From an uncultured Actinomycetes bacterium (GTDB lineage: Bacteria > Actinomycetota > Thermoleophilia > Gaiellales > Gaiellaceae), in assembly GCA_963772855.1 (NCBI GenBank), contig CAVYYY010000003.1, forward strand, positions 568,290 to 632,289: a stretch of 64,000 nt of DNA. The letters run 5' to 3'. Both the position numbers and the translations under genes were made by a program. The notes beneath the pieces were generated by a model. The model saw only the letters and a list, made by a program, of their open reading frames with translations. It had not been told where the DNA came from and searched no databases. Positions 908 through 11,922 of this stretch are shown piece after piece (within the stretch, counting starts at the first letter, position 1; each line of letters opens with the position of its first letter).

Positions 908-981
908 GGTGGCGGTAGCTCAGTTGGTAGAGCCCCTGGTTGTGGTCCAGGTGGTCGTGGGTTCGAGTCCCATCCGCCACC
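908..981 (+). tRNA. tRNA-His (anticodon GTG)
   Basis: Hand-folded cloverleaf. It has an encoded G-1, acceptor GTGGCGG/CCGCCAC, anticodon stem CCTGG/CCAGG with loop TTGTGGT, and T arm GTGGG-TTCGAGT-CCCAT. No CCA is encoded. Confidence 0.9.
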
Positions 982-989
982 CTTTCCAG

Positions 990-1061
990 GGCCCCGTAGC
1001 TCAGCGGATAGAGCGACGGACTTCGAATCCGTGCGCGGAGGTTCGACTCCTCCCGGGGCCA
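990..1061 (+). tRNA. tRNA-Arg (anticodon TCG)
   Basis: Hand-folded cloverleaf. Acceptor is GGCCCCG/CGGGGCC, anticodon stem ACGGA/TCCGT with loop CTTCGAA, and T arm GGAGG-TTCGACT-CCTCC. No CCA is encoded. It lies 8 nt after tRNA-His. Confidence 0.9.
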
Positions 1062-1113: not shown

Positions 1114-1578
1114 ATGACCCGTCCGATGCCGCCGACCGACAATCCGACGTACGCGCGCCTCGAAGACCAGATTCAGTGGTACGAGCAGAAGAGCGGGTTC
1201 AACCACCGGCGATTCGTCACGATTAAGGGAGCGCAGCTGCTCGCCGCAGCCGCCATTCCCGTGATCGCGACGATCGACAGTCCGGCCGCGGTCGCCGCGG
1301 CCCTGGGAGCGGCGGTCGTCGTGCTCGAGGGTTTCCAGCAGCTGAACCAGTACCAACAGAACTGGAGCTCCTTCCGCTCGACGGCGGAGGCCTTGAAGCA
1401 CGAGAAGTACCTGTATCTCGCCTCCGCGGGGCCGTACCGTCACTCGCGACGAGCTGTCCCGCTGCTCGCGGACCGGATCGAGGGGTTGATCTCGCAGGAG
1501 CACGCCAAGTGGGTGTCGGCTCGCGAGGAAGCTGCGCATGCGCTAGCCGAGGCGGACGACGACGGCGCTGCCGGCTAG
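1114..1578 (+). CDS. DUF4231/SLATT-family 2TM protein (SMODS- and SLOG-associating 2TM effector-like)
   Basis: 154-aa ORF. Two hydrophobic helices (AQLLAAAAIPVIATI, AAVAAALGAAVVVLEGF) are followed by QNWSSFRSTAEALKHEKYLYLA, which I recognise as the DUF4231/SLATT signature. It is first in a tight three-gene cassette. Confidence 0.7.
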   Translation: MTRPMPPTDNPTYARLEDQIQWYEQKSGFNHRRFVTIKGAQLLAAAAIPVIATIDSPAAVAAALGAAVVVLEGFQQLNQYQQNWSSFRSTAEALKHEKYLYLASAGPYRHSRRAVPLLADRIEGLISQEHAKWVSAREEAAHALAEADDDGAAG

Positions 1579-1622
1579 CGCCCGGGCTTGTAAGCCGTAG
1601 TCCGCCGCGCAAGACTTCTCGC

Positions 1623-2753
1623 GTGAGCGACGAGCCCCAAGGCGGGGGAGACGCTCCGGAAACGCCGCCGTCGACCCCGCAGGCTTTTCACATCTTCGTC
1701 AACTACCGGCGCGAGGACACTGCCGGCCACGCCGGCAGGCTGTACGACGCGCTGTCCGAGCGCTTCGGCGAGGACCACGTCTTCATGGACATCGACAAGA
1801 TCCATCCGGGCGAGGACTTCACGCAGGCCGTCGAGGCGAGTGTGGGAACCTGCGACGTCCTGCTCGCGCTGATCGGGCGGCACTGGATCGACGTGAAGGA
1901 CAACGAGGGCCGGCGCCGGATCCAGAAGGCGCACGACTGGGTCCGCATCGAGATCGAGACGGCGCTCGCCCGCGCCGAGACGCGCGTGATCCCGACGCTC
2001 GTGCAGGGCGCGGAGATGCCCGCGCCTGACGAGCTGCCCGGACCGCTTCGCAAGCTCTCCGTGCGCAACGCCGTCGAGTTGAGCGACATCCGCTGGCACT
2101 CCGACGTGAGCCACCTGATCGAGTATCTCGAGGGGCTTGCCGGGCCGCGTGCGACGCCTGCGCCGGCGCCGCAGGCGCGCAAGCCGGAGGCGGTCGCCGG
2201 CGATGAGCCGAAGCGGACGCGCCCGCGCTGGCTCGTCCCGGCCGGCGTCGTCGCGGCATTCGTCGTCGCTGCGGTCGTCGCCGTCGTCGCGCTCACGGGC
2301 GGCGGTGGCGGAAAGGACCCGGCCGAGGCGGCATACGTTCGGCAGACGGACACTCTGCTCTCGCACTCCGCCGCGACGAAGGGCGATCTCAACGCGGTGA
2401 TCAAGAGGGTCCAGAACAATGCGATTACCCGCGACCGGGCGCTGAGCACCATCGGTCAGATCATCGGCGAGCGTGAAACGCTGGCAGGAAGCCTCCCCGT
2501 CGACACGCCGCAGGCATTCCAGCATGCGCAGCAGTTGCTGAAGGAGTCGATTCAGGCCTCGAAGCGAGACGACGAGGCGGTGAGAGACTGGATCGTGGCC
2601 GTCTTCGACGATGCGGACAATGCTCCCGCACTTGCTGCCAGGTACCACGAGCTCAGCGGAACCGCCTCGAATCTGAAAACGCAGTTCCTGGACGAGTACA
2701 ACGGCCTTCGCAGCGAACGGCTCGGGCTGGAGCCGACCAACCCATCCTACTGA
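1623..2753 (+). CDS. TIR-domain protein with one TM helix and a C-terminal extracytoplasmic helical domain
   Basis: Supplied ORF 1509..2753 was trimmed to the GTG at 1623. TIR_2-like core runs FHIFVNYRREDT...DIDKIHPGEDF...DVLLALIG...HDWVRIEIETAL, with Glu at W+4 as in catalytic TIRs. It is followed by KRTRPRW + LVPAGVVAAFVVAAVVAVVAL (TM) and a ~140-aa helical tail. Confidence 0.8.
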   Translation: MSDEPQGGGDAPETPPSTPQAFHIFVNYRREDTAGHAGRLYDALSERFGEDHVFMDIDKIHPGEDFTQAVEASVGTCDVLLALIGRHWIDVKDNEGRRRIQKAHDWVRIEIETALARAETRVIPTLVQGAEMPAPDELPGPLRKLSVRNAVELSDIRWHSDVSHLIEYLEGLAGPRATPAPAPQARKPEAVAGDEPKRTRPRWLVPAGVVAAFVVAAVVAVVALTGGGGGKDPAEAAYVRQTDTLLSHSAATKGDLNAVIKRVQNNAITRDRALSTIGQIIGERETLAGSLPVDTPQAFQHAQQLLKESIQASKRDDEAVRDWIVAVFDDADNAPALAARYHELSGTASNLKTQFLDEYNGLRSERLGLEPTNPSY

Positions 2754-2756
2754 AGC

Positions 2757-4344
2757 GTGTCCGACGGTAGGATCGCGTTCAGGCTCCGGGTCGGCGTCAC
2801 GGGGCATCGCGTTCTCGAGGACGAGGACTGGCTGGCGGCGCGCGTCCGCGAGGCGCTCGTGCTCGTGCGCCGCCGCGTCGGTGCCAAGCCGGCGACCCCG
2901 GTGCATCTGACGGTCGTCTCCTCGCTCGCCGAGGGCGCCGACCGGCTTGTCGCGCGGCAGATTCTCCGCGAGGAGGAGGGCGCGCTGTTGGAAGCGCCGC
3001 TGCCGCTCCCACGCGATCGCTTCCGCCGCGACTTCGCGACGCAGGAGTCGGTCGATGATTTCGACGAGCTACTCGAGCGTGCGGTCACGGTCATAGAACC
3101 GGGCCCGCTGGCGACCGCGGAGGAAGGGTACGCCGAGGCCGGACGCTACGTCGTGGAGCGCAGCGACGTGCTGTTCGCACTGTGGGACGGCCTGCCGGCC
3201 CGCGGCGAGGGTGGGACGGCGGACATCGTGGACTACGCCGCCGCGAGAGGGAAGCCGACCGTGTGGATTCATACCGGCGGCGACCTCGAGGTCGACGATC
3301 GGCTGGGCGAGTCGGTGGCACGGCGCGCTCTCGCGCGACTGGACGAGTTCAACCGGGCGACGGTGTCGTCACAGGGCGTGTCGGACCGCCTCCGGGGCCT
3401 GCGCAGGCTGGACGAGTCGAGCGGCACCGCCGCGACCGAGGCGATCGGCCGGGACGAGGCGGACGCACTGAGCGCCTGGATTCTCCCGTACCTGATCCGG
3501 GCCGACCTCCTTGCGCTCCGGTATCAACGCTGGTTCCACCGCTTGACCGCTTGCGCTCTACCTCGCCGCCGCCGCCGCCGTGGCGGTCGTCGCCGTGCAG
3601 TCGTTCGTCTTCCCCGGACAGTCTGCAATCGTCTGGATCGAGGTCGTGCTCCTGACGCTGCTCGTGGCGGTCGTCTTCTACGGGCGTCGGATCCGGCTGC
3701 ACGATCGCTGGCTGTCGTACCGCTTCCTGGCGGAACGGTTCAGGTCAGCGTTCTTTCTCGCGGCCGCCGGGCTCGGGCAGCGACGCGAGGGCGGGCTCTC
3801 CCGCGTCGGCGGGAGGGACGCGGGGGCGGAGTGGGTCCAGCACGCGTTCACCGAGGTCTGGAACGCACGGCCGCAGGTCGACGTCCACGCGAACGTCGAG
3901 CGCCTGCGCGCATTCCTCGCCGAGCGGTGGATCCATGAGCAGCGACGCTACTACGCCCGCGCGAAGCTACGGTTCGATCGCCGGCGCCGCTTGCTCGTCG
4001 CAGGAATCTACTGCGCGTTCCTGACGACGATCGCCGCCGCGGTCCCGCACGCGCTCGGCGTCGGTGAGGAACGGGGGATCGACAAGCTGTTCGCAATCCT
4101 CTCGCTGTCTCTGCCCGCGCTCGGCGCCGCTTTCAGCGGACTGCTCGCACAGCGGGAGTACCAGCGCAACTCCGAGCGCTACCGCTGGATGGAGCAGTCA
4201 CTCGACGTCGTCGCAAACCGGATGAGCCAGGCTCACGACGAGCTCGAGATCCGCCGCATCGCCGCGGATGCGGAAGCGACGCTGCTCCAGGAGAACCGCG
4301 ACTGGATGGGCGTCATGCGGTTCCACGACTTCGAGCTGAGCTGA
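2757..4344 (+). CDS. SLOG-domain / SLATT-domain fusion protein; reading frame broken near 3547-3560
   Basis: ORF 2757..3938 N-terminus has a SLOG/LOG/DprA-like Rossmann pattern (VGVTGHR, SSLAEGADRLVA, LFALWDG, GEGGTADIV). The +1 frame (ORF 3580..4344, open from 3547) continues with TM helices and a second SLATT-like module (YYARAKLRFDRRRR, two helices, REYQRNSERYRW). The GTG start lies 3 nt after the TIR stop. Confidence 0.7.
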
Positions 4345-4355
4345 AACCTGTTTGC

Positions 4356-5539
4356 CTACCGGTGCGCTCCGGGCAGGGCGTCCGGATGTGACGTCATGCC
4401 GTGCATGTCCCGGGCCGGCGATCTTGTGCTCTGCTGCGCGGCCGCCGAACAGCGCCACGGTGAGCGCGGCGGCGCACAGCATGCTCAGTGCGATCGGAAG
4501 CGACGTGGCATCGGCGACGAAACCGATCAACGGCGGGCCGACGATGAAGCCCATGTAGCCGAGCGTGAAGACCGCGGCGAGGGACGGTCCGGCGGGGGGA
4601 CGCGGCCCGCTGCGCTGAACAGCAGCGGCACGGCGTTGGCGATTCCGACGCCCACCAGCGCGAACCCCGCGACGGCGAGGGACGCGTTCGCGATCAGGAG
4701 CGTGGCGCCGAGCGCGACTGTCACGACTGCCATCCCGGCGGAGAGCAGGCGTCCCGGCGCCCCAGCGCCGCGCGAGACCGTCGCCCGCGAGTCGCGCGAG
4801 CGCCATTCCGAGGGAGAAGCCCGCGAAGCCCGTCGCGGCCGCGGACGCGCCGCCGTCGAGGTTGCTTCTGAGGTAGATCCCGCTCCAGTCCGCCATGGCG
4901 CCTTCGGTCACCATCACGAGGAAGCAGAGTGCGCCGATTAGCAAGACGCCGCGTGAGGGCGAGGCGAAGCCGGCCGGGCCGTGCTCGGAGTGCGCGGACG
5001 CGGATCCCAGCCGGGTTGTGATCGCGAGCGCCGCGAGCCAGAGCAGGCACCCGGCGACGAGAGCCCTCGACCCGCGCGTCGACGCCTGCATGCACGGCGA
5101 GGGCGACCCCGGCCGCTCCCGCGAGCCCGCCGAAGCTCCAGCCGGCGTGGAGCGATGACATTATCGGGACGCCGAGGGTCCGTTCGACGGCCACGCCGTG
5201 TGCGTTCATGGCCACGTCCATTGCGCCGTTCGCCGCCCCGAACACGAGCAGCGCGACGCCAAGAGTGACCGGCGAGGGCGCGAGCAACGGTAGAACGAGC
5301 AGCGGCACGAACACGAGCGTGAGCGCACGGGTCGTCGCGGCACTCGAGCGGCGGTCGAGGACCTGGCCCGTGAGCGGCATCGCCAGCATCGCACCGAATG
5401 CCATGCAGAGCAGGCCCAGACCGAGGACGCTCTTGGAGACGTCGAGGCGGTCCTGCACGAACGGGATCTGCCCGGCCCAGGTGCCGACGATCGCGCCGTT
5501 GACGAAGAAGGTGCCAAAGGTCGCCGCCCGCGGCGTCAT
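4356..5539 (-). CDS. MFS transporter; at least 3 frame breaks (~5090, ~4730, ~4560), 3' end uncertain
   Basis: Hydrophobic 12-TM-like translation is spread over ORFs 4721..5539, 4198..5091 and 4527..4733 (MTPRAATFGTFFVNGAIVGTW..., GVLLIGALCFLVMVTEGAMADW..., AVFTLGYMGFIVGPPLIGFVAD). The end at 4356 assumes a further shift; as written, the last frame runs to 4198. Confidence 0.6.
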
Positions 5540-6797
5540 GGTCGGATCAGATCACGTCACGCCGCGACGACTGCCGTACGATGCGCCCCTGACGTCTGCA
5601 GGCGAGATCCGCGGTCTGGCCGAGCGGTTCACGAGGGAGCCCGTTGCGCGCTCGTCGCTGGCGCTGGTCTTCGACGAGAGCATCGCCTCGTCGGTCGAGG
5701 TGCTCGTCGAGGGCCGCAACTTCTATCCGCCGATGCTCGAGGACATTGCCTCGGCGTCGTCCTCCATCCACATCAACCAGTTCGGCTTCAGACCCGGCGT
5801 CGTCGGCGACTCGTTCGCCGAGGCGCTGAGCGCGAAGGCGCGTGAAGGCGTCACCGTCAGGCTCGTCGTCGACCAGCCAGGGGTCCGACCCTGACGGCGG
5901 CTCGCGTGCGTTGTACGAGCGGTTGACGGACGCCGGTGTTCACGTCTGCGTCGTCCGCGCGACGAAGTTCCGCGTCCCCTCAGGGCCGATCGACGGCGGG
6001 GGCCCGACACGGTGGAACCTCGGCGCGCTGGGACACATCGACCATCGCAAGCTCGTCGTGATCGACGGACGGGTTGGCTGGGTCGGCGGCGCCGGCATCG
6101 AGGACCACTTCCAGGACGGTCGCTTCCACGATCTGTTCGTCCGCATGACCGGGCCCTTGGTGGCGCAGCTCCAGCTCGTCTTCCTCGCGAGCTTTCGCTG
6201 GCTCGGCGGGTCGATCGACACCGCTGAAGTCGATGCACTCTTCCCGGAGCAGGATGAGGGCCGGATCCGGTCCCCGCAGTCGTCCTGCACAACGCGCCCG
6301 GAAGGTGCGGCCCATCTCCGATGCGATCGCGGCACTGCTCGAGGGCGCACGCGAGACGCTCGACGTCGTCAATCCCTACGTGACCGACCGCGGGATGATC
6401 CGGCGAATCGAGCAGGCTGCACGGCGTGGTGTCCGCGTGCGACTCTTCGTTCCCGCGAATGCGAACAACTGGGCGTGCGCCGCCGCGCAGCAGTTCCACC
6501 ACCCGGCACTGCTCGACGCGGGCGTTCGCATTCTCGACTACCCGACGATGCTGCACGCAAAGGCGTTCGTGCGGGACGGCGAGGAGCTCGTCGTCGGGAC
6601 GTGCAATCTCGAGGCGTGGAGCCTCAAGCGCTTCTTCGAGATCGATCTCCAGTGTTCGGTCCGAGCGTGTCGCGGCGGCGTTCGACGACGCGTTCAGCAC
6701 GCCGGCGGAGGCGTGCTCCGCTCCAGGTCGCCGCCTGACCGGCCGGAAGGAGCGCGCGCGCGCGCTCCTCTTCTCCGTCCTGTCTCCCTTCCTCTAG
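5538..6797 (+). CDS. phospholipase D / cardiolipin-synthase-like protein with two HKD motifs; 3-4 frame breaks
   Basis: Pieces lie in ORFs 5208..5894, 5842..6738, 6233..7033 and 6426..6797. HKD motifs are HIDHRKLVVIDG...GGAGIED and MLHAKAFVRDGEELVVGTCNLE. Breaks are near 5880, 6262-6305 and 6650. Confidence 0.7.
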
Positions 6798-7165
6798 CGG
6801 GAGCGCTGCGACGCGGCGTACTCCTCCGCGACGCTCTTCGGCACCGTGAAGGCCCATGCCTCCTCGACGAGGTCGCGCGCCTCGTCGGCGTCGATCGCGT
6901 CGAGCCGGACGTGGGCCCAGTGGTATCGCATGTCGGACTCGCCGGGCAGCGAGAACTTGTCAGGCTCGGACTCGACGAGCGCATTGCGCCAGTCCTTCGG
7001 GAACGCGAAGCCCATCGTCTTGCCGTCGCGTGAGATGGACAGGTAGACGATGCGGCCGACCCGGAATTTGACGCGGCCCCGCACGAAGCCCTCGCTGCTG
7101 CGCGGCAGCGGAGTTGCGAAGGCACGGATCTCGTCGACCGTCACCATGGCGCTCGTCGCAACCAT
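6794..7165 (-). CDS. MmcQ/YjbR-family DNA-binding protein
   Basis: 123-aa ORF. The pattern FRVGRIVYLSISRDGKTMGFAFPKD...MRYHWAHVRLD is typical of YjbR/MmcQ-like proteins. The start may instead be the second Met (7147). Confidence 0.6.
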   Translation of the reverse strand: MVATSAMVTVDEIRAFATPLPRSSEGFVRGRVKFRVGRIVYLSISRDGKTMGFAFPKDWRNALVESEPDKFSLPGESDMRYHWAHVRLDAIDADEARDLVEEAWAFTVPKSVAEEYAASQRSR

Positions 7166-8678: not shown

Positions 8679-10022
8679 ATGAGCGCGCAGGTCGAGGAGC
8701 TGGCGGACAACAAGGTCCGGCTGACGGTCGACGTTCCCCGCGAGGACGTGCACCACGCCGTGGAGCATGCGGCGTCCGACCTCGCCGAGAGCGTGAAGAT
8801 CCCGGGATTCCGCAAGGGGAAGGTGCCGATGCCGGTGCTCGTCTCCCGCATCGGCAAGGAACGCCTGTACAGCGAGGCGATCGAGAGCCACATCGGCAGC
8901 TGGTACGGGAACGCCGTCGCGATGACGCGGATCCGGCCGGCGGAGCAGCCGGAGCTCGACTACGAGCTCCCGGACTCGGATTCCGAGGACTGGCGCTTCA
9001 CCGCGACGGTCTCGGTCCTCCCGACGCCGGAGGTGCCCGACTGGTCGAAGCTCCAGGTGCCGTACGCCGAGCCCGAGATCCCCGAGGACATCGTGGACCA
9101 CGAGCTCAATGTCCTCCGCTCGACCGTGGCCGAGCTCGCCCCGGTCGAGGACCGGCCGACGCAGCTCGGCGACACGATCGTGGTCGATCTCGAGGCGGAC
9201 GACGGCGGTGGCCAGCGCGACTACGTGGTCGAGCTCGGGACCGGACGGCTGCTGGAGGAGCTCGAGGAGCAGCTCGTCGGCATGGCGTCCGGCGAGACGA
9301 AGGAGCTCGAGCTCGATCGGCCCGGCGAGGAGGAACCGGCCTCGATCCAGGCCACCGTCAAGGAGATCAAGGAGAAGGTGCTGCCGGAGCTGGACGACGA
9401 GCTCGCGCGCTCGGCGTCCGAGTTCGACACGCTGGACGAGCTGCGCGCCGAGATCGGCGAGCGCCTGCGCGCGCAGCTGGAACTGGAGGCCGACGAGGCC
9501 TTCCGGCGCGCAACCGTCGACCGCCTCGTCGAGGCGGCGGCCCCGCAGGTCTCAGGCCCGGTCGTCGACGCCCGCACGCGCGGGCTCCTGCGCGAGCTCG
9601 ACACGGTGATGCGGCGCAGCGGGACGACCCTCGACACGTATCTCCAGGTCTCGGGCGACTCGCCCGAGAATCTCGTCGCGAGATTGCGCGAGCAGGCGGC
9701 CGCATCTGTCGCCGGCGAGCTCGTCCTCGAGGCGATCGCGGACCAGCTCGGGATCGAGGTCACGGACGAGGAGGTCGACGCGGCCTTCCGCGAGCGATTC
9801 GACGAGCCGGAGAAGATCATCGAGCAGGCGCGCGAGGCAGGCGCCTACGACGCCGAGCGCGAGACCATGCGTCTGGCCCGAGCCCTCGACCGCGTCACGG
9901 CCGACGTCGAGCGCATTCCGCCCGAGCAGGCGGCTGCGCGCGAGGCAATCTGGACGCCCGACAAGGAAAAGCCCAAGACGGAGACGAAACTGTGGACCCC
10001 CGGCAGTAAGGAGCCAGCCTAA
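8679..10022 (+). CDS. tig: trigger factor
   Basis: 447 aa. The ribosome-binding signature [10 protein letters not shown] sits in the N-domain, the C-terminus is acidic, and the gene lies upstream of clpP-clpX. Confidence 0.95.
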
Positions 10023-10024
10023 AA

Positions 10025-10609
10025 ATGAGTCCTCTCATCCCGATGGTGATCGAGCAGACCTCGCGCGGCGAGCGATCGTTCGACATCTACTCGCGTCTGC
10101 TCAACGAGCGGATCATCTTCCTCGGCACTCCGATCGACGACCAGATCGCCAACCTCATCGTGGCGCAGCTGATCCATCTCGAATCCGAGGACCCCGAGAA
10201 GGACATCCAGATCTACATCAACTCGCCGGGCGGCCAGGTGTACTCCGGCCTCGCGATCTACGACACCATGCAGTACATCAAGCCCGACATCCAGACGACC
10301 TGTATCGGGATCGCGATGTCGATGGGCGCGATCATCCTGGCGGGCGGGACGAAAGGAAAGCGGGTCGCGCTGCCGAACGCCAAGATCCTCATCCACCAAG
10401 TTTCGGGCGGCTTCCAGGGGCAGGCGACCGACATCGAGATCCAGGCCCGCGAGACGATCAACCTCAAGAGGCGCCTGGAGGAGATCCTGGCCGAGCACAC
10501 CGGGAGGCCGCAAGAGCAGGTGGCGAAGGACATGGAACGGGACTATTTCCTGACTTCGCAAGAAGCACAGGAGTACGGCATCATCGATAACGTGATCGCG
10601 CATCGGTAG
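10025..10609 (+). CDS. clpP: ATP-dependent Clp protease proteolytic subunit
   Basis: 194 aa with canonical ClpP sequence ([27 protein letters not shown] containing the catalytic Ser). Confidence 0.97.
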
Positions 10610-10642
10610 ACGGCCGGGGCGCAGTCGGTTAAAAGGAGAGAC

Positions 10643-11922
<1,280 letters not shown>

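Follow-up and report, generated by a model that had tools for sequence, protein, structure and literature searches.

A cluster of three adjacent genes in the genome of an uncultured soil actinomycete of the Gaiellaceae (GenBank assembly GCA_963772855.1, contig CAVYYY010000003.1) probably encodes a nucleotide-signalling module of the Thoeris type whose components are all membrane-located. The genes, here termed g1, g2 and g3, lie within a stretch of 64,000 nucleotides (nt) of this contig (positions 568,290 to 632,289), referred to below as the window, and encode a free-standing SLATT protein, a membrane-anchored TIR protein and a protein joining a SLOG-fold domain to two SLATT-like hairpins (Table 1). 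A first-pass annotation of the same DNA had proposed a Thoeris-like signalling defence with membrane effectors, a model that is supported by the domains of the three proteins, by their co-conservation, by an invariant glutamate in the TIR domain and by the linkage of the wider g3 family to TIR genes, the proposed function being drawn from these features. The layout it described, three co-directional genes with intervals of 52 nt from tRNA-Arg to g1, 44 nt from g1 to g2 and 3 nt from g2 to g3, is exact and every sequence motif that it quoted is present in the translations.

The g2 protein matches Pfam TIR_2 (1.7e-12; 48.3 bits, the cut-off being 28) and has as its best PDB sequence match the TIR domain of human SARM1 (E 3e-5, 23% identity). 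Glu110 of g2, within the motif DWVRIEIETAL, pairs with the catalytic Glu642 of SARM1 in DWVHKEIVTAL and is invariant in 48 homologues, bearing out the earlier placement of a catalytic glutamate at the fourth position after the tryptophan. An AlphaFold2 (AF2) model of g2 (pLDDT 85.2 overall, >90 in both folded domains) likewise returned the SARM1 TIR domain first in a Foldseek search (E 1e-6, TMt 0.80-0.82, rmsd 2.4-2.7 Å) followed by AbTir. The first-pass annotation overlooked that this TIR domain is tethered to the membrane via a single transmembrane (TM) helix and is followed by a conserved C-terminal domain whose predicted location is extracellular. With four lysine or arginine residues before the helix and one after it, the positive-inside rule predicts that the TIR domain is cytoplasmic and the C-terminal helical bundle external. 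The bundle belongs to no Pfam family and is conserved only among the ~40 closest homologues of g2. Searches with PADLOC gave a weak partial ThsB1 match for g2 and nothing else, with NCBIfam giving only a sub-threshold match to 'Thoeris type III ThcB4'.

The small protein encoded by g1, which would be 150 amino acids (aa) long were position 1126 rather than 1114 the start codon, had been described as a 2TM protein of the DUF4231/SLATT type, and this holds at curated thresholds in both Pfam (DUF4231 4.4e-23, 82 bits; SLATT_1 2.9e-10; SLATT_3 3.2e-8) and NCBIfam (SLATT_1 7.2e-33, 113 bits against a cut-off of 41). Hydropathy analysis confirms the hairpin, placing two adjacent TM helices at aa 34-52 and 53-71, such that both termini are predicted to be cytoplasmic. 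A total of 1963 homologues of g1 were collected, the top 120 of which are all at least 64% identical, with one relative of 82% identity carrying the NCBI label Gaiellaceae. Compared profile to profile, g1 aligns with the first of the TM hairpin modules in g3 (probability 84%, E 7.7e-6), linking the free-standing and the fused SLATT proteins of the locus.

Once its reading frame is repaired, the g3 protein aligns end to end with homologues of 526-530 aa at 60-64% identity (E ~1e-200). Its C-terminal half bears out the four-TM architecture including a SLATT module that had been read from the sequence, with both hairpins recovered by hydropathy, the first hairpin matching DUF4231 in the repaired protein (2.8e-5, 24.9 bits against 24.7) and the second, together with the cytoplasmic helices that follow it (REYQRNSERYRW among them), matching SLATT_1 (2.2e-10, 41 bits against 26.3). 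The N-terminal domain carries the motifs GVTGHR, SSLAEGADRL and WDG..RGxGGTA, of which GVTGHR and RGxGGTA vary little or not at all, and also contains the invariant acidic residues E59, D62, E79 and D137. An AF2 model of this domain (pLDDT 90.3, pTM 0.88) was matched by Foldseek to YpsA (2nx2; E 5.8e-4, probability 1.0, TMt 0.67), a founding SLOG protein, and to the SLOG domain of BcThsA (7uxs/6lhx, the 3'cADPR complex included) with probabilities of 0.93-1.0. Thus the likeness to ThsA SLOG proposed in the first-pass annotation is found in the modelled structure, and its SLOG assignment stands at the level of the fold. Sequence searches did not support it, no curated SLOG model in Pfam, NCBIfam or PADLOC matching the g3 N-terminus at E<=1 and no SLOG relative being returned from the PDB by sequence search, whether the query was the profile of the whole of g3 or that of the SLOG domain alone. 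Weak sub-threshold Pfam matches to YpsA and YAcAr were seen in 2/62 and 4/62 g3 relatives, respectively. On the modelled structure, the g3 domain is a SLOG domain in fold, belonging to a divergent clade.

The g3 gene is split in the window, where frame 0 is open over 2757-3545 and the remainder, from 3550, is read in frame +1. Scanning for frameshifts by GC3 phase, based on G+C content at third codon positions, proved too noisy to be of use and the site was instead located by direct DNA alignment to contig L001, relative to which the window carries one extra C within a C run, at a point across which relatives read RLT-LALY. The frame repair implied by the first-pass annotation thus comes down to a single base. 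The frameshift is most likely a consensus error of the assembly, because in a short-read Logan contig (ERR12036786, 3,608 bp) an identical g1 is followed by genes for a TIR protein of 376 aa and an unbroken g3 protein of 528 aa, and because the genes nearby are likewise interrupted by indels. Alignment of the window with L001 over 6.8 kb shows 30 indels, of which 28 involve a single base and many fall within genes; an MFS gene on the minus strand is split into overlapping open reading frames in different frames (4721-5539 and 4198-5091), as is a PLD-like gene of two domains on the plus strand (5208-5894, 5842-6738 and 6233-7033). Broken g3 and g2 genes are also seen in L001 and L084, at positions unlike those in the window. 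This pattern suggests that the window assembly, L001 or both are rich in consensus indel errors, and the contig names of L001 and L084 suggest long-read assembler output. Programmed frameshifting in g3 was rejected on account of the intact gene in the short-read assembly and the scattered single-base indels nearby. Were the frameshift real, the locus would be a decaying pseudogene and the system inactive in the present organism, a reading that the split g3 of the window and the broken genes of L001 and L084 would suit; the differing positions of the breaks among long-read contigs, the fall of the extra base in a C run, the density of single-base indels, those in the MFS and PLD genes included, and the intact genes behind the identical g1 of the Logan contig together make it very improbable.

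Table 1. Features of the g1-g2-g3 locus; positions are those of the window, except in the last row, where they are those of L005.
Feature	Position	Strand	Details
g1, free-standing SLATT protein	1114-1578	+	154 aa
g2, membrane TIR protein	1623 (GTG start)-2753	+	376 aa
g2 TIR domain	1692-2153 (aa 24-177)	+	TIR_2, AF2 model
g2 TM helix	2232-2288 (aa 204-222)	+	Hydropathy; preceded by disordered linker
g2 C-terminal five-helix bundle	2319-2723 (aa 233-367)	+	AF2 model
g3, SLOG fold with SLATT hairpins	2757-4344	+	528 aa once frame repaired
g3 N-terminal part	2757-3548	+	Frame 0, aa 1-264; SLOG-fold Rossmannoid domain ~aa 8-185, then helical linker
g3 one-base insertion	3547/3548	+	CC against single C in 96%-identical contig L001
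g3 C-terminal part	3550-4344	+	Read in frame +1 (aa 265-528 after repair); pair of SLATT-like 2TM hairpins
g3 first hairpin TM helices	3556-3678 (aa 267-285, 289-307)	+	Hydropathy
g3 second hairpin TM helices	3991-4143 (aa 412-430, 444-462)	+	Hydropathy
tRNA-His(GTG)	909-982	+	ARAGORN; Rfam tRNA match (65.9 and 70.3 bits for the pair)
tRNA-Arg(TCG)	990-1061	+	ARAGORN; Rfam tRNA match (65.9 and 70.3 bits for the pair)
Restriction and TIR neighbours of g3 homologue in L005	2740-5661 and 7609-9363	- (2740-5661)	

The three genes behave as a single unit, recurring with gene order preserved and spacing almost unchanged in L002-4, L085/L087, L088, L089-92 and the Logan contig, amounting to at least four other lineages and at least three flanking contexts, with SLATT proteins of 146-148 aa, TIR proteins of 360-393 aa and SLOG-SLATT proteins of 526-529 aa. 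The first-pass annotation had treated the genes as one cassette, and the constancy of order and spacing in other lineages with differing flanks upholds this. In L002 the trio is flanked by a GMC oxidoreductase gene and a DUF5615 gene, and in Gaiellaceae-type contigs it is preceded by a HisKA_3 kinase gene and followed by one for a DUF7847 membrane protein, with topA, sigma-70 and lexA nearby. The HisKA_3 sensor kinase gene (L085 133-1554, L088 5063-6496, L089 5602-6978) ends 14-22 bp before the SLATT gene, its GerE-type response regulator being encoded divergently, with the gene for the DUF7847/UPF0259 protein (229-240 aa) starting ~17-27 bp after the SLOG-SLATT gene. Neither the kinase gene nor the DUF7847 gene occurs in the window or in L002-4, and both were accordingly rejected as core components. 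The genes flanking the trio in the window (tRNAs, methyltransferase, MFS, PLD and YjbR) are housekeeping in character, and none of the flank sets is an obvious defence island.

Beyond the trio, at least 577 relatives of g3 were found on scanning one genome per species, distributed among Actinomycetota, Chloroflexota, Acidobacteriota and Deltaproteobacteria plus one Methanoculleus. The neighbourhoods of g3 homologues were counted at 79 loci from different species, with a Pfam census of neighbours at 76 of these. TIR_2 was the commonest family beside g3 homologues, upstream in 28/76 loci and downstream in 14/76, often as TIR-AAA_16 proteins with WD40 or TPR repeats, that is, of the STAND type. 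An iterated TIR profile placed a TIR within 3.5 kb of the g3 homologue at 50 of the 79 loci, on the same strand in 42, correcting together with the Pfam census the under-count given by a narrow TIR HMM built from g2 relatives (~13/79 loci). As such, the g3 family usually adjoins TIR genes. The SLOG clade of g3 comprises 9,935 clusters at 50% identity, mostly of ~530 aa, and includes variant architectures, namely tandem SLOG-SLOG-SLATT, a TIR-SLOG fusion (P0387, 810 aa), fusion to a STAND-type NTPase (STAND-SLOG; P0363, 1187 aa) and fusion to TrkA_N and RyR (TrkA_N-RyR-SLOG; P0490, 771 aa), with RyR-domain proteins also encoded downstream of g3 homologues at 6/76 loci. In a Chloroflexia chromosome (L005), a g3 homologue is flanked on one side by the gene for a type I restriction R subunit (EcoEI_R_C, ResIII) and on the other by that for a TIR protein of 585 aa, a setting that, in contrast to the window, resembles a defence island. 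The presence of a free g1-like SLATT gene beside g3 is largely limited to the clade of the window, and outside this clade g1-like genes adjoin TIR-WD40 genes.

A further arrangement of g1-like genes was seen in L093 (4298-5447) and L094, where a SLATT gene ~70% identical to g1 is preceded by a gene for a protein without Pfam match (233 aa in L093; 270 aa and end-truncated in L094) instead of a TIR gene, the upstream stop codon being followed immediately by the SLATT start. In L095 the corresponding upstream gene falls outside the visible part. Patatin, CHAP/PG-binding, HicB and MazE genes neighbour this locus, which may represent a different SLATT-based system.

Linkages between SLOG-SLATT and TIR genes were reportedly predicted by comparative genomics in 2015 by Burroughs, Zhang, Schaffer, Iyer and Aravind. 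Aravind and colleagues predicted SLATT to be a membrane effector regulated by ADP-ribose (ADPR) derivatives and SLOG to be a sensor. A survey of TIR operons has since named Thoeris types V-XI (Yirmiya et al., December 2025, bioRxiv 10.64898/2025.12.03.692087), among them type VII, in which a TIR protein is paired with the SLATT effector ThsH, canonical cyclic ADP-ribose (cADPR) is the trigger and defence has been validated in Escherichia coli and Bacillus subtilis (Yirmiya et al., 2025). Type VII systems are found in Actinomycetota too, and the SLOG domain of ThsA binds 3'cADPR (Yirmiya et al., 2025). In the most likely mechanism, infection or another trigger, perhaps sensed via the conserved C-terminal bundle of g2 predicted to lie outside the cell, would cause the g2 TIR domains to oligomerise and turn NAD+ into a cyclic-ADPR-type signal. 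The signal would be bound by the cytoplasmic SLOG domain of g3, and maybe also by cytoplasmic pockets of g1, by analogy with ThsH of type VII, upon which the SLATT helices would oligomerise or open to permeabilise or depolarise the membrane, with growth arrest or death of the cell preceding release of phage progeny. On this model g1 would be either a second independent effector or a partner co-assembling with g3.

The topology of g2 also permits a more specific proposal, which we regard as unlikely, that g2 is an outside-in receptor whose external bundle would detect an envelope event (phage adsorption, wall damage or another cue) and switch on the cytoplasmic TIR domain, its product gating a hetero-oligomeric pore formed by g1 together with the two SLATT hairpins of g3. 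If true, a Thoeris-like system would perceive attack at the cell exterior, or a bacterial counterpart to the topology of Toll-like receptors would exist, in place of the sensing of a phage protein in the cytoplasm. Outside-in activation is not known from any bacterial TIR system.

A number of observations weigh against the putative role of the trio in defence signalling. PADLOC has no match for either g1 or g3, and the SLOG assignment is a fold-level one made on a predicted structure, with the invariant acidic residues of the domain implying that it could be catalytic, not a pure sensor. The flanks in the window and its Gaiellaceae-type relatives consist of housekeeping genes (topA, sigma-70, lexA, tRNAs, trigger factor), and this context leaves room for a non-phage role. 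Likewise, 'SLOG and 4TM' is a putative, unvalidated class of Thoeris effector for which eight TIRs are listed (Tables S1 and S2 of Yirmiya et al., 2025), and the two such operons assayed, from Streptomyces sp. GKU 895 and Ca. Nitrospira nitrosa, did not protect E. coli (Yirmiya et al., 2025), a failure that may be explained by the heterologous host. By phmmer, g2 has no significant similarity to the five readable of the eight TIRs of this '4TM SLOG' cluster (2691454909).

A rival view is that the trio is a physiological module for membrane stress or programmed dormancy unrelated to phage, in which the g2 bundle would sense an envelope or environmental cue and TIR-made nucleotides would gate SLATT channels in normal regulation, possibly under the two-component system that neighbours the trio in relatives. 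The kinase gene close upstream, the DUF7847/UPF0259 gene close downstream and the core-gene flanks of Gaiellaceae-type loci all favour such a view, as do the housekeeping flanks of the window and the conserved domain of g2 predicted to face outwards. We nonetheless consider it doubtful, as the kinase and DUF7847 genes are missing from the window and L002-4 and hence stand outside the conserved unit, every bacterial TIR-plus-effector operon characterised so far is anti-phage, and distant g3 homologues have as neighbours TIR-STAND proteins bearing WD40 or TPR repeats as well as a type I restriction enzyme, partners typical of conflict systems. It is improbable that the roles are reversed, with the TIR domain acting as an effector that depletes NAD+ and the SLATT and SLOG-SLATT proteins serving as membrane sensors or regulators that activate it. 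SARM1, the nearest relative of the g2 TIR domain in sequence and in fold, is an NAD+-depleting executioner, and in CBASS, Pycsar and pAgo systems many of the bacterial TIRs serve as NADase effectors; but those systems carry a separate signal synthase or nucleic-acid sensor, of which none was found at the locus, and SLOG is a known or predicted signal receiver and SLATT a known or predicted membrane effector. In addition, SARM1 also makes canonical cADPR, the signal of type VII Thoeris. The invariant E59, D62, E79 and D137, a GGT motif akin to the PGGxGT of the LOG family and weak matches of eight family members to the Pfam nucleoside 2-deoxyribosyltransferase family raise the question of whether the g3 SLOG domain is an enzyme, for example a LOG-like N-glycosidase, that would act to process or destroy what the TIR domain makes, or would itself produce a second messenger, some SLOG clades being catalytic. 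Its best fold matches are to YpsA and the non-catalytic SLOG sensor of ThsA, not to LOG enzymes, and fusion to a membrane effector suits a receiver, making an enzymatic role most improbable.

The tRNA-His and tRNA-Arg genes directly upstream of g1 are regarded as context only. The cassette shows no compositional break, G+C being 65-72% throughout, and a search for a tRNA-derived direct repeat flanking it as a mark of integration found none. The adjacency to tRNA genes bears no sign of an integration event. A scan for sigma-70 promoters and terminators returned nothing on the plus strand; the only terminator-like matches were two on the minus strand upstream of the tRNA genes, no more than expected by chance. 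Elsewhere in the window, G+C falls from about 0.71 to 0.61-0.65 over ~1.5 kb at 9750-11500, a dip in which an Rfam scan found no RNA family.

Thoeris systems are bacterial kin of plant and animal TIR immune signalling, and so far each new effector or signal has revealed new chemistry. If the trio is indeed a Thoeris-type module, the locus unites under one TIR a validated effector class (SLATT, as in type VII) and a catalogued, unvalidated one (SLOG plus 4TM), such that one signal, or two, would drive two membrane effectors. A functional trio would also restore the case for a predicted Thoeris type that did not defend E. coli, by directing attention to native-like operons of three genes and to actinobacterial hosts. 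The SLOG clade of g3 is mostly from soil Actinomycetota, Chloroflexota and Acidobacteriota, phyla thinly covered by defence-system experiments, and the membrane-anchored TIR with its predicted external domain raises the possibility of receptor-like activation from outside the cell.

Among known systems, the trio shares the general architecture of Thoeris, in which a TIR gene stands in an operon with an effector bearing a predicted signal-binding module. Type I Thoeris, in which the ThsB TIR signals through 3'cADPR to the SIR2-SLOG protein ThsA, offers the same logic of TIR generator and SLOG receiver, and g3 matches the fold of the BcThsA SLOG domain. Unlike type I, the trio lacks a SIR2 NADase, a Pfam search of g1, g2 and g3 giving no match to the domain; its output is a pair of SLATT-like membrane hairpins and the sequence identity of the g3 and ThsA SLOG domains is ~11-14%. 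Its proposed use of SLATT as a nucleotide-gated membrane effector is shared with the SLATT-effector systems predicted in 2015 and the 2TM/SLATT effectors of CBASS, from which it differs in that its generator is a TIR domain, with a search of the trio proteins for a cyclase (CD-NTase/SMODS) giving no match and the flanks holding methyltransferase, MFS, PLD and YjbR genes. In place of the ARM and SAM domains of SARM1, g2 has a TM helix and a helical bundle. When g2 was compared by phmmer with 29 TIR domains from Table S1 of the survey, the type III TIR4 alone was matched (E 4.7e-6).

The likeness to type VII lies in the adjacency of a TIR gene to that of a small SLATT membrane protein, here g1 at 44 nt upstream of g2, and in the SARM1-like character of the g2 TIR domain, g1 being set beside ThsH by domain family only. 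It differs from type VII in its third gene, encoding SLOG and two SLATT hairpins, in its gene order of SLATT-TIR-SLOG/SLATT and in a membrane-anchored TIR protein with a domain predicted to be external. The '4TM SLOG' configuration is approached by g3 itself, which combines an N-terminal SLOG domain with four TM helices beside a TIR gene, a comparison made by the label in Table S2; the published operons are described as two-gene and without a free SLATT. The first-pass annotation knew of no characterised TIR and SLOG-SLATT system, a claim to novelty now weakened in that the pairing of TIR with SLATT is validated in type VII and that of TIR with 'SLOG and 4TM' has been catalogued, with two failures in E. 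coli (Yirmiya et al., 2025). The class is thus already known and the SLOG-4TM pairing already catalogued, but the combination of three genes and a membrane-anchored TIR protein with a predicted external domain appear to be undescribed.

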